From contig OZ336888.1 of assembly GCA_965287045.1 (NCBI GenBank), positions 30,628,001 through 30,692,000 on the forward strand: a DNA stretch of 64,000 nt, given 5' to 3'. The DNA comes from Carcharhinus amblyrhynchos. Its lineage: Eukaryota. The translations under genes were made by a program, and so were the position numbers. The notes beneath the pieces were generated by a model that did not search any database, was not told the DNA's origin, and was given only the letters and a program-made list of their open reading frames with translations. Below, one piece after another: positions 31,705 to 59,370 of this stretch (its first letter is position 1; the number at the start of each line of letters is the position of its first letter).

Positions 31705-32530
31705 CTGGGGAATAATAAGAGTGAGGCACAGGACGTTTACTATCTTACATAAACCCATCCTTAAAAAGCCTGGACTGAAACATTGTTACACGATTAGCAA
31801 GCTGTTAACAGTGAAATTGTTCAGAAAGTCTACTGTTTCTAAATTTTGGATTTTCTTGATTGTGGAATCCTCACCATGGATTCCAAGCCCTCCCAGCCAT
31901 TCCTCAGTATATTGGAATTGAATTTACATTCAGATCAGCTATGATCTTACTTGAGCTACAAATGAGGTTTCTAGACCAAACTGAGATCTGATTTGGTGAT
32001 TTACTAAGCTATGTAACTCAATGTCACAATGGAGGTTTAACTTGCAATTATACTTTTGTCAGTCTACAACTGTTCCTAGGGTACAACTTGGTGCAACAGG
32101 AGAGTTTGAACCTATCTGATTCTAGCCAGAGTATTTGCAGAAATGGCCCTCTCTCTGCTCCCCAAGAATTGATCTTTGCCTGGCTCTCCCTTTTCACTCC
32201 TTCTTTTAACACCTGCACTGCTCCTGTGTTGTCAATCTGCTTTTCAAAATCCAGTCTTGGATGTGCTGAGATTCCCTCCAGTTAAACATTAGGAAGACCA
32301 AAGCCATCATCATTGGTTAACTTAGCATTCTCACCATAGATTCCAAACCCTCCCCTGCCATTTCCTTAGGCTGAGCCTGACTGTTCAAAACTTCAGTAAT
32401 ATTATGCAATATGCCATATCTATGCCAATTATTTTTCATGATGTGGGTATGCCGGCGTTGGACTGGCGTAAACACAGTAAAAAGTCTGACAACACCAGGT
32501 TTTAGTCCAACCTATTTATTTGATAATATT

Positions 32531-32570
32531 CTCACAAGCTTTCGAGGGGACAGCCTCTTCGTCAGGTGAA
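32531..32570 (-). ncRNA. Minimal hammerhead ribozyme motif (mirror copy, sense to reelin pre-mRNA)
   Basis: Exact reverse complement of 32738-32777. Confidence 0.75.
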
Positions 32571-32737
32571 TGGAGAGTTCTGGCCTCAGACAGAGCATAT
32601 AAAGCACAGACAGTTTAGAGATTACTGATTAAAATGCGAATCCTTACACCTAACCTGCTGTTCAAGACCTGAAGTGGCTGACAATGTCAGAACTGCTGTT
32701 CAAGACCTGAAGTGGCTGACAATGTCAGAACTCTCCA

Positions 32738-32777
32738 TTCACCTGACGAAGAGGCTGTCCCCTCGAAAGCTTGTGAG
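32738..32777 (+). ncRNA. Minimal type I hammerhead ribozyme motif (PLE-type)
   Basis: UUCAC-CUGACGA-a-GAGG cugucc CCUC-GAAA-GCUU-GUGAG: core boxes, stem I UUCAC/GUGAG, stem II GAGG/CCUC, palindromic AAGCUU in place of stem III. Confidence 0.75.
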
Positions 32778-34774
32778 AATATTATCAAATAAATAGGTTG
32801 GACTAAAACCTGGTGTTGTCAGACTTTTTACTGTAATTATTTTTCATACATACTCCCCTTATTAACCTTTACTGTTAATTATTTTTAGACTGCACAGCAT
32901 GAACACCTCTAATCTGTTCTCATAACTCATCCTCTTTTTATTTGGATCAGATTTGTGGTTCTCCTCTGTACCCTGTCTATTATATTTATATATTTTTTGT
33001 GGCATAATGATAGACATGAACACAATATTCTGAGTATGATATGATTAGTACATTTATAGGGCTGGGTATAACTTGTTCAGATACTTAACTGTGCTAATTA
33101 TGTGGGATGAGAGAAATGAAAAATGAAAAAGTTTCTAACAGGTGGGGAGCGATCCCTATGACCACTGTTCTATGTGGTTTGACTTGAATATCTCCAACTC
33201 TGGCTGGAGTTAAAATTGGGGACTGTCAGTGCCATGGGATCCCTATCTGCATATTTAAAGAAGGATTCAATGGCTACAAGTGGGTATCTTTGCCACCAGA
33301 AGAAGAAAATAATAAGTAAGTCATTTCTGGTATTTAACTGCCCACCCACCTGGTTTCTGTCATCCAAGTAAGGGTTTTTTTTATTCATTTGTGAGACATG
33401 GACATCGCTGGTTGGCCATCATTTACTGTTCATCCCTAGTTGCCCAAGGGCAGTTGAGAGTGAACCACATTGCTATGGCTCTGGAATCACATGTAGGATG
33501 GCAGATTTCCTTCCCTAAAGGACATGAGTGATCAAGATGGGTTTTTCTGACAATGGTTTCACGGTCATCAGCAGATTCTTGATTTCAGATTTTTTAAGCG
33601 CTCCCTTGATTGATATCCAAGGTTCGTAGTTTTCTTGCATTTTTTCCACTAGCATTAGCAGGAGCTCTTCAGGAGTAATTATAACATGCATATTACTGGC
33701 TTCTAAATGCCAAGGAATGTTGTACACAGCTGAGGAATGCTGTACCCACACTAACAGCAAATCCAATGCAAATATGCTTAATTTTAGTCAGAACTCTTAG
33801 AACAACTACTAGCTTGAAAATGACCAAGTCAATGACTGTCACCTTCCAAGCTCAAAGTAATTTTGCAGCTTTCAAATTTCAGGTGGTAAGAAAGGGCTAA
33901 AGTGTACTCATTACCACTGATCAGTAATTCTCCCGGCATTATGCTTGACACTAAACAGGATTCCCAGATTGTGTGGATGATGTTAGTTCAGCTGCTTCAT
34001 CTCTCATGCTCCTTTTGGCTGAAATCACTTAGCATTTATGAGATTTTGGAAATAGCCTTGCACTGGTTCCTCCTGATTCATCCCTCAGCTACTCAACAGA
34101 TTTACTCCAGTCGTATACCACATCTTGTGGCAGAAAGATCAACAGGATGCCATTTAATTATAAATTACATAATGTAGTTAGGTCAATTCATCTCAGATAA
34201 GAGGATGTCTTGCTTTAATTCAGTCTGCTCAGCTACAGAAATGTCATTGCATTTGCCATCAGTGTGTCACTCTAATTTGGAAGTAATTGGCTGCTGCCAA
34301 ATAATGTCTTTCTTGAATAATTTTGCTACCCTTATGCTATGATTCAATATTTATAACACACAACCCTTAAAATCAGGATTATTCAACTTTGTAGTCCCAG
34401 AGACACATATAGGCTATGAACCCTGCAGCTCAATCCTCAAGATAGAAACCATTCAGATCTATATGTGTTAAAATATTTATCTGCTGGTGATCGGTATTAT
34501 TTTTGAGCGCCTGGAGATTTAGAAATTGCTGATTTGTTCTCTGTTCCTATTGATGGATGAGCCACAAATATCTGATTGATTGTCACAGCAGCTTCAAATG
34601 TCTGCAGTTTAATGGGAACATCAATGTGACCTTTATATTTCAGATTTCCAGCACCCGCAGTACTTTGCTTTTATATCAATGTGATCTTTATGCATGGCCC
34701 CGAGACGGTTTACACCTATTGCTCCACAATACGTGGAACATAATGGATATCCCCATTTTAAAATTCTGATTGAA

Positions 34775-35150
34775 ACATATAGGATCCTGAGGGGATTTGA
34801 TAGGATTGATAGCGAGAGGCTATTCCACTTCTGGGAGAGACTAGAACCTAGGGACACAGTTTAAGAATAAGAAGCTTGCCATTAAAGATGGAGATGACAA
34901 GAATTTCTTTCTCTCAAAGGGTCATTAGTGTTTTGAATTTTCAATTCCCCAGAAAGTAGTAGGGGCTTGGCCATTGAAATAATTCAAGGCTGAGTTAGAC
35001 AGGTTTTTGATAGACAGTGGAAGGAATCGAGAATTATGGGTGCGGTGGGGGTCAAGTTGAAACCATAACCAGATCAATCGTGATTTTATTGAATTGCAGC
35101 GCAGGCTCAATGGCCTGAATGGCCTACTCCTGCTCCCAAGTCCTAAGTTC
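34775..35150 (+). mobile_element. Decayed CR1 3' fragment
   Basis: Similar to the CR1 3' end at 52070-52460 (gattgaaacatatagg...ggcctactcctgctcc). Confidence 0.75.
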
Positions 35151-35482
35151 CTGCGCTCAATGCTTGCGGCGTTAAAAATTGAGAGTAGACTAAACCCATT
35201 ATCTTGAGCTACTGTCTTGCGGATATGAAGCAGGATGATAAAAATTATGCAGAGTTTGCCACAATGTTAGTCTCTCAGCCGTTTGTCAATAAATAGGCAT
35301 TGCATCCCAAAGCAATTCAATGACTGAGGAGATTGATCTCTGAGAGCAATCTTTCTCCACAGAGAATTCTAAGATAGTGATCTAAACAATAATTCTCTCA
35401 GAGAATAAGTGCATAATATTTGAATGAGCACTGGTGCCATTTTTAATTCCTATTGTTTATTAAATACGTCCGTAATATTTAC

Positions 35483-35716
35483 CTGGCTAGAGTACTGTCG
35501 AGGAAAGAAGTAATGAGCTCTCGCCTTCCCTCTTTGTTAAATACTAGAGCCTTGCCGCTCGAGAGGACACCACAGCCAAAGCCAAGTTCTGCACCGCGGA
35601 TTGAGTGGAAGTTGTGGTAAGACGAGAGCCGGGAACTACTAAAACTTTCTGAAATTATGGTGGGAAATGTTTGCGAAGCCATGTCACATCCAGGCCCTGA
35701 AAATCCTGGATCACAT
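35483..35716 (-). CDS. RELN: Reelin exon (~18), [25 protein letters not shown]...[10 protein letters not shown](R)
   Basis: ORF track 35479..35748; tttcag acceptor, GTAAA donor; 234 bp. Confidence 0.97.
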
Positions 35717-36639
35717 CTGAAAGCGAATAGAAAAGCAGATAGGTTCACATCGAAAAAATATTAAAATAAAACAATAACTGGGCACAAATCTTTTACAATA
35801 TATTATTATTTAATAGAACAGTTGAACTAATTGGTGATCAAAGCATTTAATGTATTTTAATGATATTAATTATATTCATTTATTAATATTGATTGGCTAC
35901 CGACATCATTGGACTGTGATTGGCTCCTTTGAATTACTGCAGTCTTAACTTCAGGTCTTGCCAATGTCTATGGTGTTTTGCGTGGCTTCCCATCCCACTG
36001 CCAGGGAACCCACTGCCGCAGGAAGGGCTGGAAAATCCCACCCTAGCAGCCGTGCTATTAATTGATTCAGCTGTCTTAAGGTGTGAAGCTTTTAATTATG
36101 AATCACCAGAAGCAGCTTTGTGCTCTAGTCTGTAGACTAGACTAAAAGTTGTGAGAATTGATAAGGGACAGAAATATTCATTTTGTTTTGAAACACAAAC
36201 ATGAAACATTGTTGGAAAAGGTGATTTGACCTCACAGCCATGCCATTTCCTTGTGGATCTCATTTTCACATTCCTGTTTCCTCGCAGTCTTTTTTCTACA
36301 GAAACACGTAAATATAAATTCACCACAGTCCCAGATGACCATAGACTGTGATTGGTTGTGATTTAACTTCAGGATCACCACACCTCAGGTGCCAGGAAGG
36401 TTGAGAAGACAAGCCTTCATGAATAACCTCAGCTGGTACAGGAATTGAACCCACACTGTTGGCATCATTTTGTATCACTAATTGGCTGTCCAACCAACTG
36501 AGCTAAATCAGACCCCGTGTTGAGCATTTTCAGAGATCCTTTCTACAAAAAGCTGGTTAGTGCTATATAATAGGAATGGAGTTTAACTATTGCCTTGATA
36601 TTATTCAGTTCCTCTTCTAATATACCATGGTGCTTGTCT

Positions 36640-37480
36640 TCACTGCTGTTGTCCAATATGCTGACGGAATCAGTGAATTCTGATTGTAACACTTAAATCC
36701 TTTTCCTTTGAGCACCAAACACCAGGCAGGTGAAGCTGAAAGGGTCATGTAGATGAGTTGGTTGGGGACTTGTGCACTTTTTCGAACCTCTTGACTTCAG
36801 TTGTGCATGTTCATGATGAAGTCTTTCGATAGGTTAATGCCTTCCCAAATTAATCTTCTCCATTTTGATCAGTTAAACTACTGTCATAAGTTGACAAGGA
36901 TGTTTGACCTCTTCAAGGATACTTTGAGAACATCGCCGAAGCATTTTGCCTGTCCTTCTTGGAGTCTTCTGTCATGACGGAGTTCCAAGTGGAGCAGTTT
37001 CTTCAGTTGTCTGGTGTCAGACATATGAACAATAAAAATAACTCCACTGGACTGAATGTGAGCGATTTTTAAAAAATTCATTTTTATGGGATGTGGGTGT
37101 CGCTGCCAAGGCCAGCATTTATTGCTGATCCCTTGCTGTCCTTGAAAAGATGGTGGTGAGCTGACTTCTTGAATTGCTGCATTTCCTGAGATGTAGCTAC
37201 AACCACAGTGCACTTAGGGAGCGAGTTCTGGGATTAGTGCCTTGATGCTGAAAAAGTAGGCTTGGGAGAGGATGTTGTCATTAGACCACCTTTGTTGCCA
37301 CTGGATTTGGAAGATCTTGTGACAGCCACCACTAGTCAAACTTCTCCAGAGCTTTGAAGCTCCTGCTGTAGGTTGTCCAAGGCAGGTGAAGTGTGTCTTC
37401 TTCTACTGGGCATACAGCTTAGATCCTGGGCTATGGGACCCCTGCCTTCCATCATGCCTTCTGAAGTGGGAAGTCCTTTG
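36640..37480 (-). mobile_element. Decayed RTE-like LINE fragment with nested SINE piece (~37070-37230)
   Basis: RRLQEGQAKCFGDVLKVSLKRSNI resembles the RTE/BovB C-terminal motif GGQ.KR.KD.LK.SLK. Confidence 0.5.
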
Positions 37481-38970
37481 AGTGAAGACAGAGACTTATC
37501 CTCAGATGAGGCCTGGTGGATATTAGCAACTGCAGATCAGGATCTGTATTTCCAGGTTCTGGCCTAAAACATAGGCCTGCTGTCCAAATTATAATGGAAC
37601 TGTCTGAATGGGCAATACTGTTTTATTTTGGCTCCATGTTCCCATGCCAATTATGTTACATTTAATGGAAGATCATTGTTAAGTGTCGCTGTCAAGGTCA
37701 AAATTGATTGCCCACCCCTAGTTACTCTGACAAGATGACGCTGGACTTTTGCTCAGCTGCTTCAGAGATCAAAAAAGAGTGAATTACATTAATTTTGGGA
37801 CTGGAGGCCCTGACTGGGTCTGGTGAGACGGTTCCTTCCCAGTAGGACATTAGTAAACCAGTTGGGTTGATAGTGATATTATAACAGCTTCATGATCACT
37901 TTTACTGACCGTGTTTTATTTCTGGCCCAGTTCACAATAAGAGCTAAATTCTTTCCAATCAACTGCAATAAATTTGGGGATATTGCCGATAATACCTTAG
38001 GCTATTCATATTTCTCTCTCTCTATATGTATAAGAGCAATGCCTGGGGCACATCATTTGCAACCACTCTTCAGCTCAAATATTACATTGTTTAGAATCGT
38101 ACTTTACTTCCTGTTCCATCAGTATTGATCTGATGCTGGATCTCTGTACATGATTTTTGAAAACAATCAATTAACCTGATCATAAGAATTTAGAAACTCT
38201 TCAACATCAATTCATCTCGCTGGGTTGCTTTAAATTAATTTTGATATTAGGAGTTATGATCACTGACTGAAATTAGGCAGTCACTTCTCAAGTGTGTGCT
38301 GGAAGACAACTTAACTGATCGCTGTTATCAAAACTCCAGAGCTCATGAGTATTTTTCTTAACAGCGGGAGTGAGAGACAAAGTTTTCAAATTGTACGTAT
38401 TGCCATACAAAAATGAAATTGTGATGTGTTCTTTACAAACATAGCACAGAATGTATAACACAGCAAATCTTCCCTCAATCCCTCCACTGATGATACCTTG
38501 GGCAATTGTTTCCTCAAATGCTGTGCGTGGGTTTACAATTATGATGTCTTGCATCTTGATTAATTTGAAGAGCAAATCACATGGCAAATAAGTTGCCACA
38601 TACTCCTGCCACATATCCATTAGCAAGGTTAGAGCTTTGCCAGTTGTTTCCACAGTTGCTTTGCCATTTAACCTGACTTGCAGGCAGGATTGTGAAATTT
38701 TTCAAGATTAGTATTAAACTGCATCAAACAAGACGTTATCTACAGGAAGTTTATTTAAAGCCCACTGTGCTGTATTGGTAGACAGGTCCCAGTTAAATAA
38801 ACAATTCTGTTTTCTTGTGCCTGTCATATGGGTGAGAGATTGCAGTTACTGCAGCAAGGTTAATTATCAGAGGGATTAGGTCAGCAAGAATGTTTTAATT
38901 TGTTGGTGATATCTCAAAGTCATGTTTAGACTTAGATGAAATAATAGAGAATAATGAGGCTTCATCTTAC

Positions 38971-39037
38971 TTGCATCCGTTGGTGGTACATCGACCTCGA
39001 CCAGAACACAATTTGTAACAGGCAGGGCCAATGTAGA
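38971..39037 (-). CDS. RELN: Reelin exon (~17), (V)[21 protein letters not shown](K), first part of an EGF-like domain
   Basis: Hand-translated; EGF cysteine spacing; ctgcag acceptor, GTAAG donor; 67 bp. Confidence 0.95.
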
Positions 39038-40008
39038 CTGCAGAAGGAATTAAACATTCCACAGGTCAGACTATTGCAATGTTTGGAACATTAGCTTACA
39101 AATGAATAAACATACTGGTATTGGGTGAACAAGTTACACTGAGAAAAGGGTTGCCCTACTTAACTGAGATAACCAATTTTGTCCTCATACTGACTGCTTG
39201 GCTAAAATTATGAACAGGAGGGATTTATTAATTGAAATACAAACAATGATATGGTTAATGCCAATTATACCTGCCACAATCCTTTCTCAATCAAGTTTTC
39301 ACTTGTTCTTTAACCTCTAGTTTTCTCCAGTTACCATTTACCCACCGAATGGAGTCAATTAATTTGTGCTACAGTTTCACAGGCAGCCTCAGTTCTTAAC
39401 TGCTTCACACAGGTGGCCACTGTTTGAATCTGGACTGTTATCATGGGGCTGGTAGGTCATGTGCAGAGTTTAAAACCTGAGCCCAGCACTGTCCAAATCC
39501 AAAGTCCATGCACATGGGCTTCAGGCAGGGGCAGCTGGATCAGAGCCAGGATTGAGAACCATGGCCAGTTATTTCCCAGACTAGGCACACTCCAACTCTC
39601 GGACACTAAATCTCATCATACTCGTACCCTGACTACGTCTGGTTAAGAATGTGAAACATTTCTGGTATATATGGCTAAGACTCAAATGGGGGAGTGCATT
39701 TACCCTGTGAGCCACTAGGAGATGTAACTTTATTTATTTTTCAAATCATTATTTAAATAAAGCACAATACAAGTTTAAAAAAACTAATTGTAAAAAAAAT
39801 TGCTGTGACATAAAGCAGCATAAAAGTAAGACTTCAGAGTGGATTGTCTACATGAAATTAGTCATTGCTTGTAATGGAGTTTTCCAGGCAATCCAATAAA
39901 AGTCAAGGAAACAAAATGAAATGTGCAAGAGAATAAAAGATTGAACATGACTTGGTCATTTGAAATCATGCTGACTTTTTTTTATTCTAAATACATGCTG
40001 GTACTCAC

Positions 40009-40118
40009 CATTATCAATTGCCCACATATTTCCTGCGACTGGACCCATCTGGCTCCAGCGAAATCTGGTCCCAGCGGTAAGCGCAGCATATGGTAGAGGA
40101 ATGGTTATACGACTCCAC
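40009..40118 (-). CDS. RELN: Reelin exon (~16), [36 protein letters not shown]
   Basis: Hand-translated; reelin repeat TRFRW and WAIDN motifs; ttgaag acceptor, GTGAG donor; 110 bp. Confidence 0.95.
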
Positions 40119-40479
40119 CTTCAACACAGGACAACACACAAGTTATCAAATGGCAGCTTCAATATTGAAAAGTTTATCAGTTTATTCATTCAGTCACTTG
40201 CAGAGTGTGAGTCCGCCCCTATCTGACTGACTGATTGTTTTGCTTTATTGTTTGATTGTTTCCCTCTGTGATTTCTAGTTGAGTAGCCAACAGCCATCCC
40301 TCTCCCAATCCCACCCCACACCTTGCATAAACATACAGACAGCACTAACTATACCAGTGTATTCTCCTGTATGGTTCAAATGCAATATCTTTTTGTTTTG
40401 AGTGCATTCACACAAATGAACATTAAGGGAAACTGTCCATTAATTCTTCAAGACAGAAAAGTAGGATTTCACAGCAACC

Positions 40480-40632
40480 CTGCCCTGAAGAAGTCATACA
40501 GGCTCAAAACGTTAAGGGGGAGATGTTCCTCCCACTCCGTGGTGTGTTTCTCTTTCCACAGATGCTGCCAAACCTACCGTGCTTTCCCCAACATTTTCTG
40601 TTTTTATTTCAGATTTCCAAGTATTTTGCTTT
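40480..40632 (+). mobile_element. Old Penelope-like pLTR fragment
   Basis: ctgaagaagtcatacaggctcaaaacgtt followed by ccacagatgctgcc...atttcagatttcca, shared with 57780-57890. Confidence 0.55.
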
Positions 40633-40881
40633 CATAACCTTGAATTCTCTGCTGGAACTAAAAGGTCTTGGGACTAATCTCATGGGAATAAGAGGTACCC
40701 TCAAAAATATTCATGTATTCCCTTAAAAAAAGCATTGCTTTTTATAGAAAGGTTTCAAGTTGGTTGCCTTTGATAAGTTTGACTACTCAGTCTTTAAGTC
40801 ATTCTGCTTTAGAATATAAATCACTAAAAGATACAATTTTTTAAAACGGAAATAATAATGGGATAGCAGTTAGATCCTTAC

Positions 40882-41010
40882 CCACTATAGTTTTCAGAAG
40901 AATAGACGGAGCTGTGGGGATGATGTGGGCCTGAGCACAGATCAGGCAGACACTCCATGTGCAGTAGGGACCAGGAACGTCCATGATTCGTTGAAAACTC
41001 CAAGCTTATG
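40882..41010 (-). CDS. RELN: Reelin exon (~15), [42 protein letters not shown](G)
   Basis: Hand-translated, not in ORF track; BNR/Asp-box-like motif STNHGRSW; caccag acceptor, GTAAG donor; 129 bp. Confidence 0.96.
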
Positions 41011-41927
41011 CTGGTGTCACAGAAAGAATTCAAAAAAATTGATTATCACTTGTCTTCACAAAGAATGTGAATAAAATCCGAGAGGTCTTAAAAGGCTTCA
41101 GAGCAAACTAACTGAGGGCTGACACGAGTTCGGCAGAGAGCTTCTGAAAAGTCCCAAAATTCTGGAAGGGATGGGGAATTAATCCCGAAAAGGTTGAGCT
41201 GTTTTTCTGAACAGATGAAATGGCCGAAGACATCTTTTGCAGCTAGCCCTATAGATGAAGGAATAGCAGGTCACTCTGCCGCACAAAGGCACAATGGGGG
41301 TGCTGGGAGCTTCCAACTTCAGCCACACAAATGATTCTTTCCCTGAGACAGGGTCTCCAGTTTCACACTGGGTAGATGGAGGATTGCCTCATGTTCCAGG
41401 CCTGTGTGCTTGTGCAAATTTAGGCACTGTCCTAGTTTTCTGGTGACTCCCTGGATTTTCTGAACTATAATTTGTATTCATGAGGTCACTGGAGTTAAAC
41501 TGATTTGAACAGAGCAGCAGGTCACTGAAAGCACAGACTGAGTAAATTTTCAATGCCAACAGCTTCAGAAGTCTTCATTATTACACAACTAAAGAAATTA
41601 ACAATTTATCAATGAATATTTAACAGCAATGAAAAAATAGTCCCCAATGATGAAGCACAGCAGTAAAGATTCTTTATTACCTGTAGAAATGAAAAAGAAT
41701 ATTATTGCTTCAGTTGTGTGCCATTTTGAAATGGGAAATTGTTCAGGAATGATGGACAAAACTCAATCCAATGACCAGTGGATTAGACCAAACAGTTTTC
41801 TGCTCTGCAGAGCTCACAGTTACAATCAGTAACACATTTACCTTTGAACCATCAGGGGAGCTGTGTGCCATTTAAGAACTTGTGAAGCAAACTGAGAAAA
41901 CATCAAGCTAATCGACTTGTTGTTTAC

Positions 41928-42136
41928 CTGTTGCCTGGTTGATGAGACCCGCAGCCCATATTGATGGAAAACTCTGCTAAATGAGATGGTGATGGTGGCA
42001 TCACAGGTAGAATGTGGAAGAAGTCCACAGCCCACACATTCCTGTTCAGTCCTTGATGACTCTTCTGTTTCAAGCAGAACCTTGTGGCTGACGTCTGCAG
42101 TTCTGGAGCGATGGCAACTGAAACCAGGGTTGTTTT
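41928..42136 (-). CDS. RELN: Reelin exon (~14), [44 protein letters not shown]...GCGSHQPGN(S)
   Basis: ORF track 41924..42220; tttacag acceptor, GTAAA donor; 209 bp. Confidence 0.96.
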
Positions 42137-43367
42137 CTGTAAACAATAAGTTAAACACGTAGTCCTCTCTTTTAATCTTTTAATTCTGCCCATAAGTGTG
42201 CAGTGAACATTCTCATGCATCTACATACACTGAAATTAGCCAAGAATGGTCATATATCAGATGTTCAGGTATGACATAATATTAAAAATGTTGACGACTA
42301 TTGAGGACCTTGGTCCATTTCTGTTGGCACTAAAAAAACTTCTGGTTTCCTCTGACAGTCCGAATGACACGCTGGTTAGCATTGGCCATGCTAAATTCTC
42401 CCTCAGCCTATCGCCGGAGTGTGGCGACTGGGGGAATTATCACAGTCACTTCACTGCAGTGTTAATGTAAGCCTATTAGTGACACTAACAAATAAGCTTT
42501 TAAAAGAATTTCACACTTCACACCCCTCTTCAGCTCAAAGAGCCTTTTGGAAATAAGTAAACATGGGACAAAAGGGGGAACTATAACCAATCTGTCTGAG
42601 TAACTCTGCAAAGTGACTGGAGGCAAGGTGACCGGAAATTGTTTTATTTACACCAAGCAGCTAAAGAGGACTCCCAGAACTTGGCTTTATACGAATGGAA
42701 TATAATGCTCCTGCTTCTAAAGTAAAGTTGAGGGGAAGTAACAACTACAATTTGTAATTGCAACATAGCTTTAATAGAATAAAACATTCCAAGGTTAAGG
42801 TTAGGGTACTTCACAGGAGCATTTTCTAACAAAATATGACATCATGCCACATAAGATGACCTTAGGTCAGGTGACCAAAAGCTTGGTCATCTCATAACCC
42901 AAGATAGAATATGCTATCATTACTATAACTCTGCAACTTGCTCATTCAGCTGCTGACTCTGACTGATGTAGAGAAATCGTATTTATGGGCTACAGTTAAA
43001 CTAACAATGACTACATTTTTGTGATTTAGTCTCTTCATTCAGGTTGGTTCACCCAGTTGGCTGGACAGTTAGGGTGCAGTGCAGAATAAGGGCAACAACA
43101 TGGGCTTGATCCCTGTACCGACTAAGATATTTCTTGGGGCGTGCCTCTTCACCTTGCCTCAGCAATATCATTAACAACCCTCAGAGAATGAAGATGCTAC
43201 ATAGAGAGCGGTAATTCCTTCACTCGTCCTAAACAACTATTTAAAGACTGCCATATGATAAGAAAATACGTATGTATGTACACAGATAAATATCACCGAA
43301 AATTAAGTATTCTTATCACTTAACATATTGTATTTTAAGAGCATGTATCTCCTTTCTGATCTCCTTT

Positions 43368-47349: not shown

Positions 47350-48730
47350 AAAGGGATACTGATAGGTTAAGTGAGTGGGCAAAGATTTATCAAATGAAGT
47401 ATAGTGTGGGAAGATGTGAAATTGTCCATCTTGGCAGGGAGAGTAAAAAAGAGTATTATGCAAATGGTGAGAGATTGCAGAGCTTTGAGGTGCAGAGGGA
47501 TCCAAGTGTCTTAGGGCAAATATAACAAAAGGTTAGTATGCTGGTACAGCAAATAATTAGGAAAGCTAATAGAATTTTGGTTGTTTATTGCAAGGGGAAT
47601 TAAGTATAGAAGTAGGAAGATTATGCTTCAGTTGTACAGATTAAAAGTGAGATCACATCTGCAGTACTATGCACAGCATTGGTATCTTTATTTAAGGAAT
47701 TATGTAAATGAGGTGGAAGCAGTTCAGAGAAGGTTTACCAGGCTAATGCTTGAAAATAACACCTAATAGACTAACATCTTCATTCAGCCTGAAAGCATGA
47801 TCCCAACCTTTCTGTTGTGTGTTATTTTAACTCAGCATCTTGCTCTCCTGATGTGTCCGTCCTTGACCTGCTGCGATGTTCCACTGAAGTCCAATGCAAT
47901 CTGGAGGAGCAGCAACTCATCTTCTGATTAGGCCCAGTACAGCCCTCAGGATTCAATACTGAGTTCTACAACTTTAGACTGTGACCTTTCCCCGCCATCT
48001 TAAACCCATCTTTAAATATTTCATACATTTATTGTCTCAATGCAAAAACCATCCCCTATTCCATACCAGGCCATCTGTCTCTTATTCTTAAGATTGCTAC
48101 ATCTTGTTACAATCTCTCCCAGTTACAGTATAATAACCAACACAGTTTCCCAATTTTTAGTTCTGATTAAGAGTCAAATGGATTGGAAACATAACTCTGT
48201 TTTCTCTCCCTACAGACGTTGCCAGATCTGTTGAGATTTTTCTGCATTCTTTGTTTTTGTTTCAGATTCCAGCAGCCACAGTATTCTGCAGCATATCTTG
48301 TATTATGAGTAAAGTTTGGACAAGGTAGGCTTGTAGCTTTGAAGAGTAAGGAGTGACTTGATTGAAACATCTAAGATCCTGAGAGGGCTTGACAGGGTAA
48401 CTGTGGAAAGGATATTTTCCCTTCTGGGTCACTATTTAAAAATAAGGGGTCATCAATTTAAGTCAGATTTGAGGAGAGGTTTTTCTCTCAGAGGGTCATG
48501 AGTCTTTGGAAGTCTCTTCCTCAAAAGACAATTAGAAGAAGAGTCTTTAATTTTTTTTAAGGCAAAGATACATAGATTCTTGCTAAGCAAGAGGATGAAA
48601 GATTATTGGGGTACATGAGAATGTGAAGTCTAGGTTACAATCAGGTCAGCCACAATCTTATTGAATGGCAAAGCAGACTCTAGGAGCCAAATGGCCTACT
48701 CCTGTTCCTCTAGTACATATATGTTCATAA
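47350..48730 (+). mobile_element. Decayed CR1 fragment interrupted by a Penelope-like remnant
   Basis: FIARGIKYRSRKIMLQLYR...QRRFTRL (47581..47766); CR1 sequence resumes near 48300 and runs to the 3' UTR. Confidence 0.8.
47775..48290 (+). pseudogene. Penelope-like element 3' remnant (GIY-YIG endonuclease C-terminus plus pLTR)
   Basis: One frame 47775-47984 reads HLHSA*KHDPNLSVVCYFNS...NLEEQQLIF*LGPVQPSGFN (both internal stops are TGA, consistent with CGA decay); followed by degenerate hammerhead ctgattaagagtc...ggaaacat near 48163. Confidence 0.7.
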
Positions 48731-48744: not shown

Positions 48745-49148
48745 TCTTTTTCTTTATTCTTTCATAGGATGGGGGTATCTACGGCCAGCATTTCTTGCCC
48801 ATCCCTCATTACCCCTCTATGGTATAACTTGTTAGGCCCATTTCAGAGTGCAGTTAAGAGTCAACCACATTGCAGTGGGTCAAGAACCACATGTAGGCCT
48901 GACTGGGTAAGGATGGTGATTTCTTTTCCTAAAGCTCATTCGTGAACCAGGTGGATTTTTACAACAATCGATGATGGTTTCCTGTTCACCATTACTGAGG
49001 CCAGCTTTATATTCCAGATTTATTAATTCACTGAATTTTCAATTCCACCAGCTGCCATGGTGGGATTTGAACTCATGTTGCCAGAGCATTGGTCTGGGCC
49101 TCTGGATTACTAGTTCAATGATAATACCGCTATGCCACCATATCCCCC
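48745..49148 (-). mobile_element. Second SINE family copy
   Basis: Reverse complement homologous to 43368-43737. Confidence 0.7.
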
Positions 49149-49971
49149 AAATGAACGATAAAGTAGATGATGACTATGGTTGAAACATCAGAAAATCAAG
49201 GCTTAGCATGTCCAATTGGCTACATAGGAAGGTGACCTGCATCACTGACCATGGAGCGTGGGTCATTTGTATATATTGTACAGGAAGAGAAAAGTAACAA
49301 TAATGGAAACATCTCCTCAAAATATTATTTGTAGAACAATCATGATATCCATAATTTATTCATGCAGTTACAAATAGAAAAGAGAACATTTTTTCCCTTT
49401 AAAAATATTGCAAATACTGGAAATATGAATTTTTCCCCTATGTTACACAAAGACGTTTCACAGCTACTCAGAATAAAATTGCTGAGATCTCAAATATTAT
49501 GGACTCTTGTTGGGTTAACTGAAAATTGAACTCTCCAGGGAGGGTGTTGCATGCATATCCTTGAGCAGTCGATTGAATGCGGGTGAGGCACTGAGGATAG
49601 GTTCAGGGAATTAAATTCCCTGTGCTGTCAAGTGCTTTTTCTATAACAGCAACTGTACAGAAAATGTTTTGGGGAAACTCTGTAGCAGTGAACTGAGTGA
49701 AGATTATTTATTTTTCTAGTGCTCTGAAGAAAATAACTTTGATTAATACCATTATACGTTCAGAGGGAAACAAAGAGTTAAAATATTTTTTGCCAGTGCA
49801 GCTTTTACATCCCACTAGAAATATTTAATTCTTTCTCTCAGCAAATTTCTTTGACATCCAGCTGCACTTTAAATATGTATGTGTGGGGCTAATGCAACCC
49901 TTCTTTGAATCTCACTTATCCCCCAGATAGCTGTACACATATTCAGAATACTAGAGATAACAAGCACTTAC

Positions 49972-50117
49972 CCTGCAGGCTGACTTTCAAACTCTTCCAC
50001 CCACTGCGTTACAATGCCTTCGGTCCAAAGATCAACATCCCTGGTTGTTACAAAGTTAAAATCAGTGCCCTCAGTCCCATGGAAATACATGGAGTTACCA
50101 TCAGATTGACAGCTATG
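49972..50117 (-). CDS. RELN: Reelin exon (~11), [48 protein letters not shown](G)
   Basis: ORF track 49968..50183; ccacag acceptor, GTAAG donor; 146 bp. Confidence 0.97.
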
Positions 50118-51169
50118 CTGTGGGGAGAGAGAGAGATAGAGTGCATTACAAGGACTCAGGACACTAGTTTGTAACCACAACAAAATCTGGCTTCAACAAA
50201 GAGAATTTTGAAGAGAGTTTTTCAATTATTTATTCATTATTGCCTTAAGCATGAAGTCAAATTACAGTTAAACAACACAGCAGCTCCCCCTCAGTCAAAG
50301 TATCACCGTGATAAATAGAATATTTATTTTGATGAGTGTTTTGCAGGCTGATTATTTAAAGCAACGATAAAATGCAAATGTCTGGTTTTTATGACTACAA
50401 TTGTTTTAGCAATACTCTTTAATGCTTGATTTCAGTGATTCTAAGTTTCTCATAACTGTAGTTTCTCACTTGTGGTTTCATTCTCCGTAATCTACATTAA
50501 TCTCCATTTTTAATGGGGTTTTTTATATAGTGCTCTATCCACAAAATTATATACAGTAGTCGAACTAAAACCTAAATAAAATTACTGTTGTCTATTTGAT
50601 CTTGTACTTTAAAGTCTCTATTTATAAAATCAAAAATTTCTGCGGCCTTTCTTATGGCTTTATTCAGTTGCTTTGCACATTCAAAGAAGCCACTCTGTTT
50701 ACCCACACCCTTTGGTATCTTTCCATTGACTGTACACTTGGTTTTCTATCCAAGATATATTATCATGTATTACTCCACACTAAATTACCACTTTTGCTTT
50801 TTTTTGCTAACCTGACTATGCCCTCCTGAAGCCTCCTAAAGCCCTGATCTTTATTTGCCTAATCTCTCAATTTAGTATCTTCAACTAATTTTGATTCTGT
50901 GTTTCTAAGATCCATATCCAAATCAGTGATCTATCTTGAAAATAAACTGATCCCTGGAAATGCTACTTTTAACTCTCCTCCAATCCAAGCAAAATGCAAT
51001 ACCTCTAACTCACAAACCAACTTTCCATCCCTGCTGCCATATTTCCTCATGTCCCACATTGCTGGACTCTTGTAATAACCTTCTTGTGAGACACCCTATC
51101 GAAAGCTGATTGGAAGTTAATGATTGGAATTTTTCAGCCATTCATACCCTGTCGCTGCTGCAAATGAGA

Positions 51170-52461
51170 ATGGAAGGGAAGTCGTGTCTGACAAATTTAC
51201 TGGAGTTCTATGAGGATGTGTCTAGGGCAGTGGATAGAGGAGAGCCGGTGGATGTGGTCTTTCTGGATTTTCAGAAGGCGTTTGACAAGGTACCTCACAA
51301 GAGGTTATTGCAAAAGGTCAGGGGACATGGAGTTGGGGGTAGGGTGTTAGCGTGGATAGAGGATTGGTTGTCAAATAGGAGGCAGAGAGTGGGGGTCAAT
51401 GGGTGCTATTCGGATTGGCGGATGGTGACTAGTGGGGTGCCCCAGGGGTCGGTGCTGGGGCCTCAGCTATTTACCATTTATATAGATGATCTGGAGGAGG
51501 GAACTGAGTGCAGGGTGTCGAAATTTGCTGATGACACCAAGATTGGGGGAACGGCAAATTGTGCGGAGGGTGTGGAGAGTCTGCAGAAGGATCTAGATAG
51601 GCTGGGCGAATGGGCCAGGAAATGGCAAATGGAATTTAATGTTGGCAAGTGTGAGGTGGTCCACTTTGGTAGGAAGAATGGTAGGAAGGACTATTACTTA
51701 CGTGGCGAAAAACTGCAGCAGGCGACGGTGCAGAGGGACCTCGGGGTCCTTGTGCATGAGTCGCAAAAACCCAGCTTGCAGGTGCAGCAGGTGGTCAGGA
51801 AGGCGAATGGGATGCTGGCCTTCATAGCGAGGGGGATTGAATATAAAAGTAGGGAGGTCTTGCTGCAGCTGTATAGGGCATTGGTGAGGCCGCAGCTGGA
51901 GTACTGTGTGCAGTTTTGGGCGCCGCACCTGCGCAAGGATATTTTGGCCCTGGAGGGAGTGCAGAGGAGGTTTACTAGGCTGATACCGGAGTTGAGGGGA
52001 TTGAGCTATGAGGAGAGGCTGAATAAACTAGGCTTGTACTCGTTAGAGTTTAGAAGAATGAGGGGAGATCTCATTGAGACGTATAAGATGATGAATGGGA
52101 TGGATAGGATAGAGGTGGAGAGACTCTTCCCGCTCAAAAAAGACAGTAGGACTAGGGGGCACAGCCTCAAGATAAAGGGGAGGCGGTTTAGAACGGAGTT
52201 GAGGAGGAACTTCTTCACTCAAAGGGTGGTGAATCTCTGGAATTCTCTGCCCGTTGAAGTGGTGGAGGCTGCCTCGCTAAATATTTTTAAGAAGCGGGTT
52301 GATGGGTTTTTGATAAGAGAAGGGATTAAGGGTTATGGGGAGAGGGCGGGAAAGTGGAACTGAGCCACGACAGATCAGCCATGATCTTATTGAATGGCGG
52401 GGCAGGCTCGAAGGGCTAGATGGCCTACTCCTGCTCCTATTTCTTATGTTCTTATGTTCTT
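51170..52461 (+). mobile_element. Young 5'-truncated CR1-clade LINE with intact RT and C-terminal ORF2 frame
   Basis: ORF 51110..52363 has KSCLTNL, DFQKAFDKVPH, GVPQGSVLGP, FADD, RRNFFTQRVVNLWN with no stops; 3' UTR ends in (ttcttatg)n; possible 6-bp TSD atgaga (51164-51169 / 52462-52467). Confidence 0.95.
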
Positions 52462-53203
52462 ATGAGAGTTTGGCACTCAGCCAAATCTCTGTTCACTTCA
52501 GCGGGATCAAAGAATCCCACTGGTGTAAACAGCCAGAAGATTCTGGCCAATATTTTCCACAATAATTGTATTCCTTTCATCTACATAATTAATCACATCC
52601 TCAAAAGATGTGATTAAATTTATCAAGCATTTATCTCTAATAAATTCACATTGATTTCTAAATGACCACAAATTTAATCTCAAATTAAGTTTTGACCACA
52701 GAAGACAACTGGCCAATATTTCTACAATGACCAGAGATATCCCTCTTTCGAAGAAAGGTGCCTTACTAACCATCCTTTAGTTGCATAGTAAGGAGAACTG
52801 AAAAGTTATGATCAAAGCATCTGGCAACTCTCTTTGACTTACTTCAGCTGCCTAAGACGTATGCCATCACAATCCAGTGACATCCATCTTGAATTTGTTT
52901 ACTTTTCTCAGAATCAATTAATTTGGTAGGCCTAGGTAAGAGTCAGTGTAGACTCAATGGGCTGAAGGCCTCCTTCTCCACTGAAGGGATTCCATCTCTC
53001 TATGATTTTTCTGCAGTTTACTTCTAATAATAATAAGAATGGAACATGAACACTGGCATAGACACGTTGGGCTGAATGGTCTGTTTCTGTGCCATTTTTC
53101 TATGTAATCCAATGTAATAATTCCATATCCTACTCTGAACATTTATATTCCAACATCATTAGTAAAGCAACGTATTTATATTATGCCATACTGTCATGTT
53201 CCA

Positions 53204-53477
53204 CAAAGCTAATTAACCAAAGCTTTTTTTTAGTTATGAATGCATGGAAGGAACTGACTGAACCTACATATTAAATAAATTGTTCCTTTAACAGTTACAG
53301 CAAAATGATCCACCAACTTCCTTTGTTGTGTGATCCAATTATTAATAACACAAGACAACATGGAAGTTGGTGGATCATTTTGCTGTAACTGTTAAAGGAA
53401 CAATTTATTTAATATGTAGGTTCAGTCAGTTCCTTTCATGCATTCGTAACTAAAAAAGCTTTGGTTAATTAGCTTTG
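53204..53477. repeat. Palindrome/foldback with ~117-bp arms and 40-bp spacer
   Basis: 53204-53321 is the reverse complement of 53362-53477 with 2 substitutions and a 2-nt T-run difference. Confidence 0.95.
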
Positions 53478-56400
53478 ACAGATGCATTAAGGTAGATCTG
53501 GATTGCTCCTCTATGTCTTGCATCTGAAATTGCATCAATGGAATGGTTACATCTTGCAGTGAAATGAAAATTCCACAGCAACACATGATTTTTTTGTGGA
53601 ATAGCAGATGCAGTTGTGTCAGCCGTTGCTTTCACTCTGGAATATCTCTCTTCAATCTATACCTACCAGGGGTGTATGAATAATAGATCACTTCCGTCTG
53701 ATGACTCTTAAGAACATGTCAGGGGTGAAATGAGTTCCAGCAGACTGAATTCAATGGTGAATGAGATAATACTTAAAATGCCAATAACATAAATATATGG
53801 GTTTAGGTTTTGGCAGATGAGAAAGGGTTCGATACTACCCCACACCAATCCATCTGCCTACGTATCAGATCATAATAATTCAAACTAACTTGCACAATAA
53901 AGTAAACTAGCAAGGCCATTTTGTGATTGTGAAATTAATATTTCTAACATAATTCAGATTTAGATCAATGGCTTATAGGTGAGTTAGTGCTGAAATCGTA
54001 GCAGGAGCCTCAGAGGATGATGTTGAAATTCAACAATACTGACAGAGGTAAGAAAATGTTTGATGAACTGACTTATGACCTCAAAGTTTCAGGGGCTGTT
54101 CGCACAGGAACAGAAGCCACTGATGGAATAAATACATCTGAAAGGTTGCAAGCAAATGACAGCAGATGGAGGTCAGACTTGGCAGGTCCACAGTTGATGA
54201 TGTGAAGAAAATATTTTAGGTTTCTTTTTAACCTATTTTAAAATATTTCACCCAAGAAATATTCAAATCCTTAAGGTGTTGCAAAGAACAGGCGTGACTG
54301 ATTCCTATTGCCATAAATCAAAGAATTGGTTGAGTAAACGACTTTTTTAACTTCAAAATGGAATGATTGAGTGGAGTCCTCATAGGTACATTTAAGATAT
54401 TGCTGATATGGTGGAGACATATTAGTATATTGCTACAAAATAAGCTGTAGACAGAGACAGCATAGTATAATGACATTTAGGACAGATACTGAGAATTTCT
54501 TCTTCCTCTACAAGAAATTAACACACAGGATGGACCCCCAGGTATGAGGCAAAAAATCTTGAAATCATTTAAAAAGAGAGCTGGATGTTGCACTGGGGAC
54601 CGTAGGTTATTTCTGGATGGATAAGCCAGGGTGAGCTTAATAAGCATCCTCATCCATATCCATCTTGTGATCATGGAGACAGAAAAGGTAGAACTAAGGT
54701 CACAGGAAGAAAATAGGCAATAGAGACAGAGAGAGCTGGAAGATCAGGAGGATACATAGTAGAAAAATATTATTGCAAAATGATTAAGAAAAATAACAAA
54801 AATAACATTTTTTTTAATTTGCAGTTACCTATTTATCCTGTACACAACTAGTTAAAATGAAAGATTTGGAGACAGGGAAAAGCAGTACTGAGCAAATTGG
54901 AGGATAGAATAGATACTGAATGACAATGCTCATATACAGCAGAGGTGAAGAAGGGTAAGTATCACAGGGAGCACCAAACTAAAGAAACCAATAAAGGATG
55001 TTTTCAAAAACTGATGATAAATTGATTGATATATCCAAGACAATACAAAGAATGAGAAAAAAAAAGTAGTCTTGGTAAAATTATAAAGGGCAGAGCAGGT
55101 GGATGTGAGAAATTGAAGATGACAAAAGTGAAAGAAATGAGATTTGGAAGAAATAAATGTTGGATAACAAATGAAAAGATATAGATACAAATGATAGGAT
55201 ATCATTTCTGATTTTTATTAAAATTGCACCTGGGTGAATGGGAAGAGACATTGGTCAGATTTTGTTAGACTGACAGGAATCTTGCCTGCTGGTTGGAGAA
55301 CTGACTGCGAATCTGCATCAGTTCCATGAAGGTGCGACAATGGAATGAAGTGCTCTTCGGGCACTTAAGTGGCCATCACTGTGATTGAGTCCCAGGCTGT
55401 GGAAATCCTACTGGCCAGAGACCAGCAGCTTGTCATTGCCATCAATGCCAGTGGGAGCAGGACTGATGGTAGCTGGGGACACTGCAGTCACCTGAAATCT
55501 AGAATCATCATGGGTCTCCAAGTCAAAGATGAGTGAGGATGGAATGGGGTAATGGGTGTGATTGACAGGAAAACGTGTTGAGAGGTAGGTCAGAGCTAAG
55601 GGCAGGTTGTAGCTTTCTGCCTCACCCCGTCCCTCAATAGGTACTAATTAGGCCCGACAATGAAGAATGCCTTCAAGCCCTCACAGCCAGCAAACCTGAC
55701 AGGGAAAGTGCGCAGCCTCCACTTAACCCCTGAGCCAGCATTACAATTGCAGTCTCAGGGTTAATGGATGTCAATTGGCTCATTAATGAATCTAATTGAC
55801 ATTCTACCATCGGCAGCCAGGAAATCAGCTCCTTCTGCACTTCCACTTAATTGGGGGAGGTTTTGCCACTGCCTGAAGACTGATACTTAGATTAAATGGG
55901 CCCAGCTACCATGCTTCCCACAATGACGGGTTGTAATAAATCCAGTCCTATGGATGAGGACTTAAAAGGAACACATGCCAAAAGTCCCAGGGCAGATAGG
56001 CACTTGAGATTTCCAACAAGTGACATTTTAGTTTCTGACTGGACTTCAATCACAGGGAATGCTTCCCATTGCCACTTAAGTGCCAAGGGTGCTTAATTCC
56101 ATTGCCCTCCCTCATGGAACTGACGCAGGTTTCCTGGCAGGTGGGACCCCCATCAGCCTAACAAAATCTGGCCTTAATCTCTCACCCACTTAGCCAGAAA
56201 CAATTTTAAGAAAAGTCAGCTATGATATTCTATCATTTGTACTTGCATCTTTTATTGATTAGCCAACATTGATTTATTTCAAATTTTGTTTAATTTACTT
56301 TTGTGGTCTTTGTTTTCTCACTCGTCACAGGGATTTAAACTGGAGAAGCTGCCCTGAGTTCAGAAAGTCTGCTGAGGTCAGTGGTTTAGGTTGGACATGT

Positions 56401-57682
56401 CAACAACCTTCCTCTCTCACCCCTTGGGTTTCCAGCCTTCCTGTGAGGATGAAAAACTGGACAGATAGCTATTCAATAGAAGCAGGAGGTTTGCATTAAA
56501 AATGCTGTCTTGAATTAGTATGCAGAGTCCACTTAGACATTAACTATTCGCACCACAGTTCCTCAACATTGTGCCTAAATTCCTACTCAGCATGGGGCAG
56601 GGGTGGAGCTGATCTTTGCCTTAATATTCTCCTTTAATTAAATATATGTATTACAGTGGGCTTAATTAAACCAAACAAGCTTGAATGTGATACCAAGCAA
56701 AGATTTTGTTTCTTTTTCTTGTCCAGATGCCAGTCCTGGGGACTGAAACATTTAAACATCCAGAGACAGCTACAAATCGCCATTAGGAAGTGGTTCGATT
56801 CGGTAAAATGTAAAGTGAAGTTCCCTCTAAGAAGCCTCATTCACTGATTTGTCACAATCTTAAAGCTGATAGCTCTGTGTTCATAGTTTGATTGAATGGA
56901 ATATGGTAATTGCTTTTTTTTCAACAAGAGGTTTCCAGTTACTTGAGGATGATACACCAGTTCAGTTACATGAAATAAAGACTCAACTCTCTGGAGCTTG
57001 ACTGAAATGCTAACAAACCTAATTAACTATGTCTGATCTGTTATTTTTTAAATTCCCAAACCAGTTACAAACCCAGCTGGTGGATCAAATTTCTCAGCTT
57101 CACTGTTGAGGTACAGCACACTCAGCTGGGTTGGTTTCAATTCTAGGGCAACAAATGGGAAGATTGGTCACTCGTACATGAGGCAAAGAGACGCTGACAT
57201 TTTACATCAGGCTGCTAAGCAACGGTGATACAGCTTGGTGGATTATGGGTGGGCACTATCAGGCCAACACTAAGGTATGTCTGCAGGTGTCATGATTGTG
57301 AGGTGGGCATGATCCACCAGAGTCCCTGATCTACAGTGCAGAGTTTATCTTTGTGGGACTGTAGGTGCATCCTCCTGTTAAAAAAAAACACAAAGTTAGG
57401 CACATTTACACATCCATGCCAGCTGAAAAAGAGCTAATCCTGGCAACTCCAGCCATCCAACTCTTGGTTTGTAATCCTGTTGGTGACAACACCAAATGGA
57501 TATCTAAGAGTATTTTAAACACAGTGACGGTTTCTGTCTCCACCACACTTTTGGGCAGTGAGTTCTACACTCCCACCACACTCTGGATGAAAACTTTCCC
57601 CTCAACTACCCTTTATTCATTCAATAATTACTTTAAATCTATGCATTCTGGTTATTGACCTTCTTATTAATGGAAATGGTGC

Positions 57683-57890
57683 CAGCATCTGTGGAAAGAG
57701 AAACAGATTTAATCTTTTGAGTTATATTACACTTCTTCAGAAATGAAGTTTGAGTTCAGAGGGAGTCATACTGGACTCAAAACGTTAACTCTGTTTATCT
57801 GTCCACAGATGCTGCCAGTCCTGCTGAGCTTTTCCAACATTTCTGTTTTTATTTCAGATCTTCATTATTCACAGTATTTGCTTTTATTAC
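57683..57890. mobile_element. Old Penelope-like pLTR pair in inverted orientation
   Basis: 57683-57742 is a diverged reverse complement of 57755-57814; degenerate hammerhead remnants (ctgaagaag; ctcaaaacgtt); same family as 40480-40630 and 48160-48290. Confidence 0.6.
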
Positions 57891-58480
57891 AGTTGAGCCT
57901 AATCCAGTTAGCAACAGATGTTGTTCACACATTCACTTCCAGCTGGTGGTCACTAGATGCCAGTCAAAAACAGTGATGTCGATTAATGTTTTTCCTCCTT
58001 TCCTAATCAGGGAATGATGCAGCCAGTTTGAATGTTCCTATTACTACCCAGAGCTTGTTTTTAAATTTCTTCTTAACCAAATATGAATCCAATTCTTAAT
58101 TGTAACTATTATATCAATGGAATATTAAATGCTTTTGATTTCATTGGATCAAATCACTGGACAACCCTGTTTGCAGCAGATAACATTAATTAACCATTCA
58201 TGATTGATTTTAATATCATTAACCACACTATAAAGTATAATAAAACAGTCAATTATTAGTATTCTTATCTGCATTAAATACATGGATTTAACTTTAAAAT
58301 GTATTAGTATTAAGATTTAAACAAAACAAAAACCAGTACATTGCGGATTTAAACAATTCTGAAGACTTAAACAATCTTGCTTTAAGTTATTCTGAGTTCT
58401 ATTTATAAGATGTTATGCAGAGTGGGGAAGCAGTGAGAGTGAGGTTAAAAGAAAGTGGTTCCATTTCATGCTCTATCCCT

Positions 58481-59259
58481 GTCCATTTGCGGTTTTATCA
58501 CTGTACCATTTCACCATCCATCCTGGTAAATCCTGATTTTTTTTTACATGTCTCAACATGAGACCACCTCTCATTCTTCTAAATGGCAGAGAATATTGGT
58601 TCATTCCAATGTCTGATTTGATTTGGCTTGTTTTGATTTATTATTAACACATATATTAGTATACAGAGAAAAATACTGTTTCTTGCATGCTACACAGTAA
58701 AAAGTCTGACAACACCAGGTTTTAGTCCAACCAATTTATTTGATAATATACTCACAAGCTTTCGGGGTTAGTCCCTTCGTCAGGTGAATGGAGAGTTCTG
58801 GCCTCAGACAGAGCATATAAAGCACAGACAGTTTAGAGATTACTGATTAGAATGCGAATCCTTACACCTAACCTGCTGTTCAAGACCTGAAGTGGCTGAC
58901 AATGATCTCTAATAATACAATAAGACAATCTAATAATACAATAATAATACAATAATAATAATCTAATAAGACAATAATCTCTTGTGAGTCTATTATCAAA
59001 TAAATCGGTTGGACTAAAACCTGGTGTTGTCAGACTTTTTACTGTGTAGCATGCAAGAAACAGTATTTTTCACTGTATACTAATATATGTGTTAATAATA
59101 AATCAAAACAAGCCAAATCAAATCAGACATTGGAATGAACCAATATTCTCTGCCATTTAGAAGAATGAGAGGTGGTCTCATGTTGAGACATGTAAAAAAA
59201 AAATCAGGATTTACCAGGATGGATGGTGAAATGGTACAGTGATAAAACCGCAAATGGAC
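58481..59259. repeat. Long inverted repeat with ~278-bp arms (58481-58758 / 58981-59259)
   Basis: Arms compared by eye: about 3 substitutions and one homopolymer indel. Confidence 0.95.
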
Positions 59260-59370
59260 TAACCCCGAAAGCTTGTGAGTCTATTATCAAATAAATCGGT
59301 TGGACTAAAACCTGGTGTTGTCAGACTTTTTACTGTGTTTACGCCAGTCCAACGCCAGCATACCCACATC
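58693..59370. mobile_element. Complex Penelope-like element insertion (three pLTR pieces, filler, inverted host duplication)
   Basis: 58693-58904 near-identical to 32473-32686; plus-strand partial copies at 58981-59046 and ~59256-59370 (the last carries the tail); 10-bp TSD ttgcatgcta (58683-58692 / 59371-59380). Confidence 0.85.
58751..58788 (-). ncRNA. Minimal hammerhead ribozyme motif, sense to reelin pre-mRNA
   Basis: Reverse complement reads UUCAC-CUGACGA-a-GGG acuaac CCC-GAAA-GCUU-GUGAG. Confidence 0.75.

Follow-up and report, generated by a model that had tools for sequence, protein, structure and literature searches.

We analysed a 64,000-nucleotide window of the genome of the shark Carcharhinus amblyrhynchos (contig OZ336888.1, positions 30,628,001 to 30,692,000 of assembly GCA_965287045.1), which holds two insertions carrying predicted hammerhead ribozyme motifs, copy A (32440-32834) and copy B (58693-59370). 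It is highly probable that both are 3' ends of a Penelope-like element (PLE) of 3.0 kb, truncated and inverted and likely generated by twin priming, and that their unlike hammerhead stems II are alleles from different sources. This account is built on direct observations: the anatomy, target duplications, intact open reading frames (ORFs), alleles that recur in several copies, stems that keep their pairing and mosaic haplotypes. Within the family, stem-loop II differs about ten times more than silent sites while staying paired. Both insertions are larger than the first-pass annotation of this DNA described.

Aligned over 214 columns, the homologous stretches 32472-32685 and 58692-58903 differ at 9, of which 6 fall in the 14 columns of stem II and 3 in the remaining 200. 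This upholds the roughly 210 bp of near identity reported in the annotation, but its description of stem II as completely different overstates an edit distance of 6. Copy A contains two hammerheads on inverted arms, of which the minus-strand one (stem II at 32557-32544), overlooked in the annotation, is collinear with copy B. The plus-strand stem II of copy A reads GAGG-cugucc-CCUC at 32751-32764, as originally annotated. That of copy B, GGG-acuaac-CCC, lies on the minus strand and spans 58775-58764, ending one base away from the 58763 first assigned. Pairs 1 and 3 of stem II are G-C in both copies, pair 2 is A-U only in copy A, with G-C in its place in copy B, and copy B lacks pair 4; the annotated retention of pairing holds. 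CUGACGA, GAAA and AAGCUU are identical between the copies, as claimed, but stem I, also said to be invariant, is 5 bp long in copy A and 6 bp in copy B. Neither copy contains an ORF, again as annotated, and tblastn finds no pieces of the element's protein in the window. The two insertions are composed as follows.

32427-32439: left target-site duplication of copy A, 13 bp, equal to 32835-32847.
32440-32690 (-): long arm of copy A, a PLE 3' end (3' untranslated region and pseudo-long terminal repeat) that terminates in a 34-nt tail; 254/255 identical to locus L087.
32530-32571 (-): minimal type I hammerhead motif of the copy A long arm, with core at 32565-32559, stem II at 32557-32544 and a predicted cut at 32536/32535.
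32655-32730 (+): tandem duplication of 38 bp at the copy A inversion junction (repeat family D11, 100%).
32726-32834 (+): short inverted arm of copy A, without tail; 109/109 complementary to 32474-32582.
32737-32778 (+): minimal type I hammerhead motif of the copy A short arm, from sequence and fold. Its parts, from sequence, are CUGACGA at 32743-32749, an extra A at 32750, stem II at 32751-32764, GAAA at 32765-32768 and a predicted cut at 32772/32773.
32835-32847: right target-site duplication of copy A, equal to 32427-32439.
58681-58692: target-site duplication of copy B, 12 bp, matching 59369-59380; 2 bp also belong to the element end on the other side.
58693-58904 (-): main arm of copy B, a tail-less PLE 3' end with a whole motif; 98.1% identical to loci L085 and L089.
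58750-58789 (-): minimal hammerhead motif of copy B, with core at 58783-58777, stem II at 58775-58764 and a predicted cut at 58756/58755.
58905-58980: AT-rich filler with short reiterated motifs at the copy B inversion junction, recognised from sequence; its origin is presumptive.
58981-59259: inverted copy of 58481-58758 in copy B (279 columns, 98.6%), which comprises 67 nt of element end plus target duplication and host flank totalling about 211 nt.
59256-59370 (+): tail-bearing arm of copy B, truncated inside stem II, with half a hammerhead and no CUGACGA; 59256-59259 is a 4-nt microhomology.
59369-59380: other target-site duplication of copy B, matching 58681-58692.

Copy B sits within an older dispersed repeat, an uninterrupted version of which is present at 24775-24911. 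An AATAAA hexamer lies at 32788-32793 (+), 15 nt past the predicted cut of the copy A motif.

The family to which the two copies belong is large and includes intact elements. An exact hammerhead pattern matches 19,378 sites in the 2.92-Gb genome and the reversed control pattern matches none, so the motif is not a chance match; the count is a lower bound because the pattern demands C at position 7 and UU at the cut. Eight same-strand hammerhead pairs lie 3,014-3,026 bp apart, in the tandem or partial-tandem arrangement of pseudo-long terminal repeats (pLTRs). The ORF between such hammerheads matches the RVT_1 reverse transcriptase (RT) and GIY-YIG endonuclease (EN) domains, the latter with scores of 22.6 and 21.3 bits at a cutoff of 22.6. 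Of 67,789 candidates in a protein search, 70 were scored, and the match is free of stops in 68 of these. An intact 893-residue frame, running from the ATG that follows the pLTR, is present in 10 of 140 fetched loci; full-length copies with an RT and GIY-YIG ORF, which the first-pass annotation supposed to lie elsewhere in the genome, thus exist. The 34-nt tail ends at this ATG, with hammerhead and tail both upstream of the ORF.

Copy A is identical to the end of the intact-ORF locus L087 at 254 of 255 positions, and the copy B main arm is 98.1% identical to L085 and L089. Judged by their sequence, A and B are inverted 3' ends, truncated on the 5' side, of a PLE of 3.0 kb that bears an EN (EN+). 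The intact ORFs are about 99% alike, and second codon positions differ by 0.47% compared with 2.6% at fourfold sites, a mark of purifying selection. The intact frames, the near-identity and the purifying selection suggest that the family was recently active. The annotation's proposal of a recently amplified PLE family with minimal hammerheads is borne out, as is its view of the copies as truncated products of a master elsewhere. The family is not a short one, however, but an autonomous 3-kb element. A DNA search of the shark's own genome with the 246-base arm gave no match, which is uninformative since the method skips very common words.

By every sequence feature tested, the element qualifies as an EN+ PLE whose hammerhead is of the minimal type. 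Here and below, comparisons with published work refer to the portions of the cited sources that were covered. The element resembles the Neptune and Nematis EN+ PLEs (Craig et al. 2021, PMC8557442) in its single ORF with RT, CX2-5CxxC linker and C-terminal GIY-YIG, and in its cysteines between GIY and YIG. The likeness extends to partial tandems, an inverted 5'-truncated copy and a 30-40-bp tail, often at one end only. The linker joining RT to EN is C-X4-C-xx-C at residue 755, and by inspection two cysteines within residues 793-811 are followed by histidines 822 and 838, as in CCHH GIY-YIG domains. The linker points to a putative Neptune/Nematis-type element; among named homologues the nearest come from sharks, at 80-91% protein identity, and carry no clade names. 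We found no description of this shark family in the literature, with Repbase, Dfam, subscription journals and supplements outside the search, and it may already be catalogued.

The hammerhead is of the minimal kind described in metazoan PLE pLTRs by Cervera and De la Pena in 2014 (PMC4209133). It has CUGANGA and GAAA boxes, an extra base between 9 and 10.1, the G10.1-C11.1 pair and a palindromic helix III. The type I core, extra base, G10.1-C11.1 pair and palindromic 15.2-16.2 agree with that study, as do the thousands of solo copies, the opposite-strand pairs 100-700 bp apart and the covarying families. Helix II is 3-5 bp here, unlike the 7-8 bp in S. mansoni. The portion of PMC4209133 covered reports weakly active dimers and inactive monomers, and it names extreme within-genome hammerhead variability without explaining it; no shark family and no rate relative to silent sites appear in that portion. 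The Rfam type I model, RF00163 (Hammerhead_1), gives the plus-strand motif of copy A 13.3 bits (E 1.6 on 141 bases), below its 34-bit gathering score. An Rfam scan of the whole window likewise returns no hammerhead match.

Other inverted pairs in the genome share the anatomy of the window copies. A target duplication of at least 8 bp (one mismatch tolerated from 12 bp) bounds 58 of 81 inverted pairs, and 48 of these duplications are 13-15 bp long. The 34-nt tail is on exactly one arm in 57 of the 58 duplication-bounded inversions, five of the 58 being the same event repeated in duplicated DNA. Both window copies fit this inverted, truncated pattern with one tail and a target duplication. A tail on one of two inverted pLTRs has been described before (PMC3846280, PMC8557442); the count given here goes beyond PMC8557442 in quantifying the rule.

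Arm spacing in the inverted pairs is continuous from about 20 bp to 5.5 kb, which identifies the stubs as truncation products. It is very improbable that the short copies form a separate non-autonomous family, retrozyme-like or resembling a short interspersed element (SINE), that was moved in trans. In favour of such a family, ORF-less short copies far outnumber full ones and contig depth climbs toward the element 3' end; retrozymes, moreover, descend from PLE pLTRs (10.64898/2026.07.22.740005). The short copies nevertheless have no fixed 5' boundary, copy A is all but one base the end of an intact element, and the window copies lack tandem units. They share with the non-LTR retrozymes of that study a short, non-coding structure and a type I hammerhead of PLE pLTR origin, but those retrozymes are head-to-tail tandem units with a whole hammerhead each, whereas the window copies are dispersed inverted stubs.

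In 46 of the 58 duplication-bounded pairs, stem II is identical on both arms of the insertion. Among the 12 with unlike stems, four are one event in duplicated DNA, three are single private changes, two (L108 and L044) involve alleles seen at just 1-2 loci, and three (L004, L027 and L115) are compatible with two source haplotypes. The duplication at L027 is just 10 bp, and the arms of L115 lie one base apart. Short-patch exchange was considered for L004, whose arms share upstream variants, and was dropped when those variants were found at 8 and 23 fetched sites. At L038, L039, L040 and L136 (C1, 5.34-5.52 Mb), a single inverted insertion is present four times in duplicated DNA, with arms that are unlike at stem II, position 7 and two downstream sites. 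Insertions at L032, L073 and L094 (and L019 and L111) have unlike stem II alleles with identical or almost identical 13-14-bp target duplications, which suggests repeated independent insertion at one host-repeat site.

Stem II exists in the family as a set of paired, multi-copy alleles. Across 217 distinct motif sites, ten stem II sequences reach at least 8 occurrences and all 43 types are able to form at least three pairs, although many of these sites came from a pattern that fixes the first stem II pair. The window types recur at 15 (A) and 11 (B) independent fetched loci, and they are most likely alleles inherited from different source elements. Against the pattern bias we used a protein-found set of 54 loci, which gave 56 spans and, with same-name rows collapsed, 52 rows; these are the hits nearest one query, and their ORF divergence is low by choice. 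Among the 52 rows, stem-loop II has a mean pairwise difference of 27-30%, compared with 2.6% at fourfold sites, 1.5% in the 3' untranslated region (UTR) and 1.1% in the ORF. Stem II is the most variable 14-nt window of the element, at 0.28 compared with a median of 0.008. Contigs from four differently coded organisms all show a depth drop at stem II, and their loose ends carry alleles of the present family, including that of copy B in run X4; these contigs speak for presence only. Our literature search, which left subscription journals and supplements outside, found no paper that compares the stem II rate with silent sites.

The alleles cluster on the ORF tree and are strongly mosaic. Stem II labels placed on the ORF tree require 11 changes, compared with 35.0 when shuffled, and none of 200 shuffles is as low. 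Two stem II alleles are nevertheless forced onto both main clades of this tree. Four-gamete conflicts affect 11 of 15 pairs inside the 30-nt motif versus 36 of 120 upstream, and the two pLTRs of one element carry unlike stem II alleles in 2 of 8 tandem pairs (L031 and L081). In L031, A-type and B-like stems occur within one full-length element. The L031 element (200-350 and 4953-5200) lies in a tandem repeat of about 32 bp.

Shared and private changes stand at about 11:0 in stem II versus 23:41 in 392 fourfold plus UTR sites (Fisher p = 6e-5), where the private count for stem II covers non-CpG changes over 12-14 nt and the 11 shared steps were tallied by hand. As proof of positive selection this test was rejected, since selection, RT errors and recombination fit it alike. 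Diversifying selection on stem-loop II among source elements, with pairing kept for ribozyme function, would account for the contrast and for the rank of stem II above all other 14-nt windows; escape from host small-RNA or protein recognition, or RNA partner choice, are examples of what might drive it. We consider it unlikely. Private changes are mostly DNA mutations that follow insertion, so RT errors or recombination mimic the pattern, the steps are not independent, and no candidate host factor was identified.

Pairing is retained where stem II changes. Genome-wide, pair 10.2-11.2 is A-U at 8,769 sites, A-C at 178 and G-U at 207 (the remaining 10,224 by subtraction), where about 4,800 would be expected in each mixed class. 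In 20 hand-picked motifs, double changes occur at three of the four stem II pairs and 93.7% of cells pair. None of 500 shuffles reaches the covariation score and slid controls score lower, in a test with few independent events that relatedness may inflate. Stem I shows no double changes in these 20 motifs, and two of its six pairs change on one side only. In the 52 ORF-found copies, core boxes vary only by changes present in 1-3 copies, mainly at CpG, and the variation carried as shared alleles falls in stem II, the cut-site base and the outer end of stem I. The cut-site base is U or A and never G, which blocks hammerheads.

Constraint on the motif is not tight, however. Among the 52 rows, 18 have A as the cut-site base, and so do 6 of the 9 intact elements whose 3' motif is readable; AAGCUU, invariant between the window copies, is thus not so in the family, and the kept palindrome is only AGCU. 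An A-C mismatch beside the cut in stem I occurs in 11 of the 52 rows, again at odds with an invariant stem I. In the energy model, full transcripts of both window copies form hairpins in which the core is paired, at about -250 kcal/mol. Because these long hairpins bury the motif in A and B transcripts, any structural selection would have acted on source elements. Both window copies are most likely inert.

A possible but doubtful explanation of these patterns is that the hairpin is a mutational hot spot of RT, through slippage in G/C runs or quasi-palindrome correction, and that the hammerhead is under little functional selection. Quasi-palindrome correction is able to generate paired changes, a number of allele steps consist of 1-2-nt indels within C runs, and families with the stem I mismatch did amplify. 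The hammerhead of PAc (the Poseidon element of Anolis carolinensis; Frangieh et al. 2024, PMC11167929) is, in addition, unnecessary for insertion in vitro, although protein-assisted cleavage was reported for it. A hot spot fits poorly with core boxes whose changes are confined to a few copies and mostly to CpG, and with shared alleles at stem II, the cut-site base and the stem I outer end. It also fits poorly with the matching stem II on both arms in 46 of 58 insertions and with double changes at three separate stem II pairs.

Under the preferred account of twin-primed, truncated PLE 3' ends, the RT-EN protein would cut the two target strands 12-15 bp apart and prime complementary DNA (cDNA) at each cut. 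Of the two primers, one would begin at the end of the tail and its partner about 34 nt upstream, with microhomologies joining the resulting pair of short cDNAs. The junction duplication, the filler and the captured flank are compatible with such repair and do not prove it. For PAc in vitro, both strands are cut and extended, RT starts at two sites bounding the tail and a dimer is predicted (PMC11167929). The shark element is like PAc in having a hammerhead at the pLTR-ORF junction. It differs in that the hammerhead and tail of PAc, a member of the Penelope/Poseidon clade, lie inside the ORF start whereas those of the shark element lie upstream, and in that shark target sites show no AT bias (56% AT). 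The motif may act, in full-length tandem transcripts, as a weak, dimeric or protein-assisted hammerhead. Such a weak ribozyme role would fix the core and the stem pairing but place no constraint on loop II, and stem II would be reshuffled onto new backgrounds by switches of template between RNAs with unlike alleles. We advance more tentatively, as a conjecture that may well be wrong, the idea that stem II is a variable module: a dimeric RT-EN holding two RNAs would prime at both target strands, switch templates at the hairpin, and so create and shuffle paired alleles.

Several observations weigh against the preferred account. The ORF tree is poorly resolved, with 4 of 46 inner branches starred, and the mosaicism could alternatively come from recurrent mutation or later gene conversion. 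In the energy model, the active form of the dimer is 4-5 kcal/mol less favourable than the cofold minimum. In the genome-wide counts for pair 10.2-11.2, G-U wobble is as scarce as A-C mismatch and, as the copies share descent, these counts represent a few haplotypes rather than thousands of tests. The stem I A-C mismatch is found in amplified families, including the intact element L086 (32 of 217 sites), and the dispensability of the PAc hammerhead in vitro (PMC11167929) bears on this account too.

The window contains further repeats. A near-perfect 96-bp inverted repeat with a 40-bp spacer lies at 53226-53457 and does not match the present element. A 68-bp imperfect hairpin at 57680-57817, which scores 44.5 of 83 bits to Rfam MIR7504, is probably another fold-back repeat. 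The three Rfam hits in the window (MIR7504, SNORD46 and RT-17) have sub-gathering scores and lie outside both copies. A direct repeat of 192 bp, 95% identical, occupies 8006-8197 and 9005-9196, 999 bp apart. Older dispersed repeat families are present at 7062-7635, 19368-19669, 23150-23468, 34767-35150, 47632-48722, 51869-52451 and 63364-63641; we take them to resemble 3' ends of long interspersed elements (LINEs) and SINEs.

The two stubs themselves are ordinary and their class is established. Template switching, RT errors and diversifying selection are candidate causes of the excess variation of stem II. The family may help with two questions raised by earlier work, namely why PLE hammerheads vary so much within one genome (PMC4209133) and by what steps PLEs integrate (PMC11167929). 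It offers a test bed of about ten paired stem II alleles with UU and UA cut sites on ORFs that are nearly alike, together with thousands of insertions that follow a near-strict one-arm tail pattern. If stem II is indeed a variable module, paired alleles would arise at ten times the silent rate, possibly selected for novelty, and this would account for the hypervariability of PLE hammerheads without RNA-to-RNA replication.

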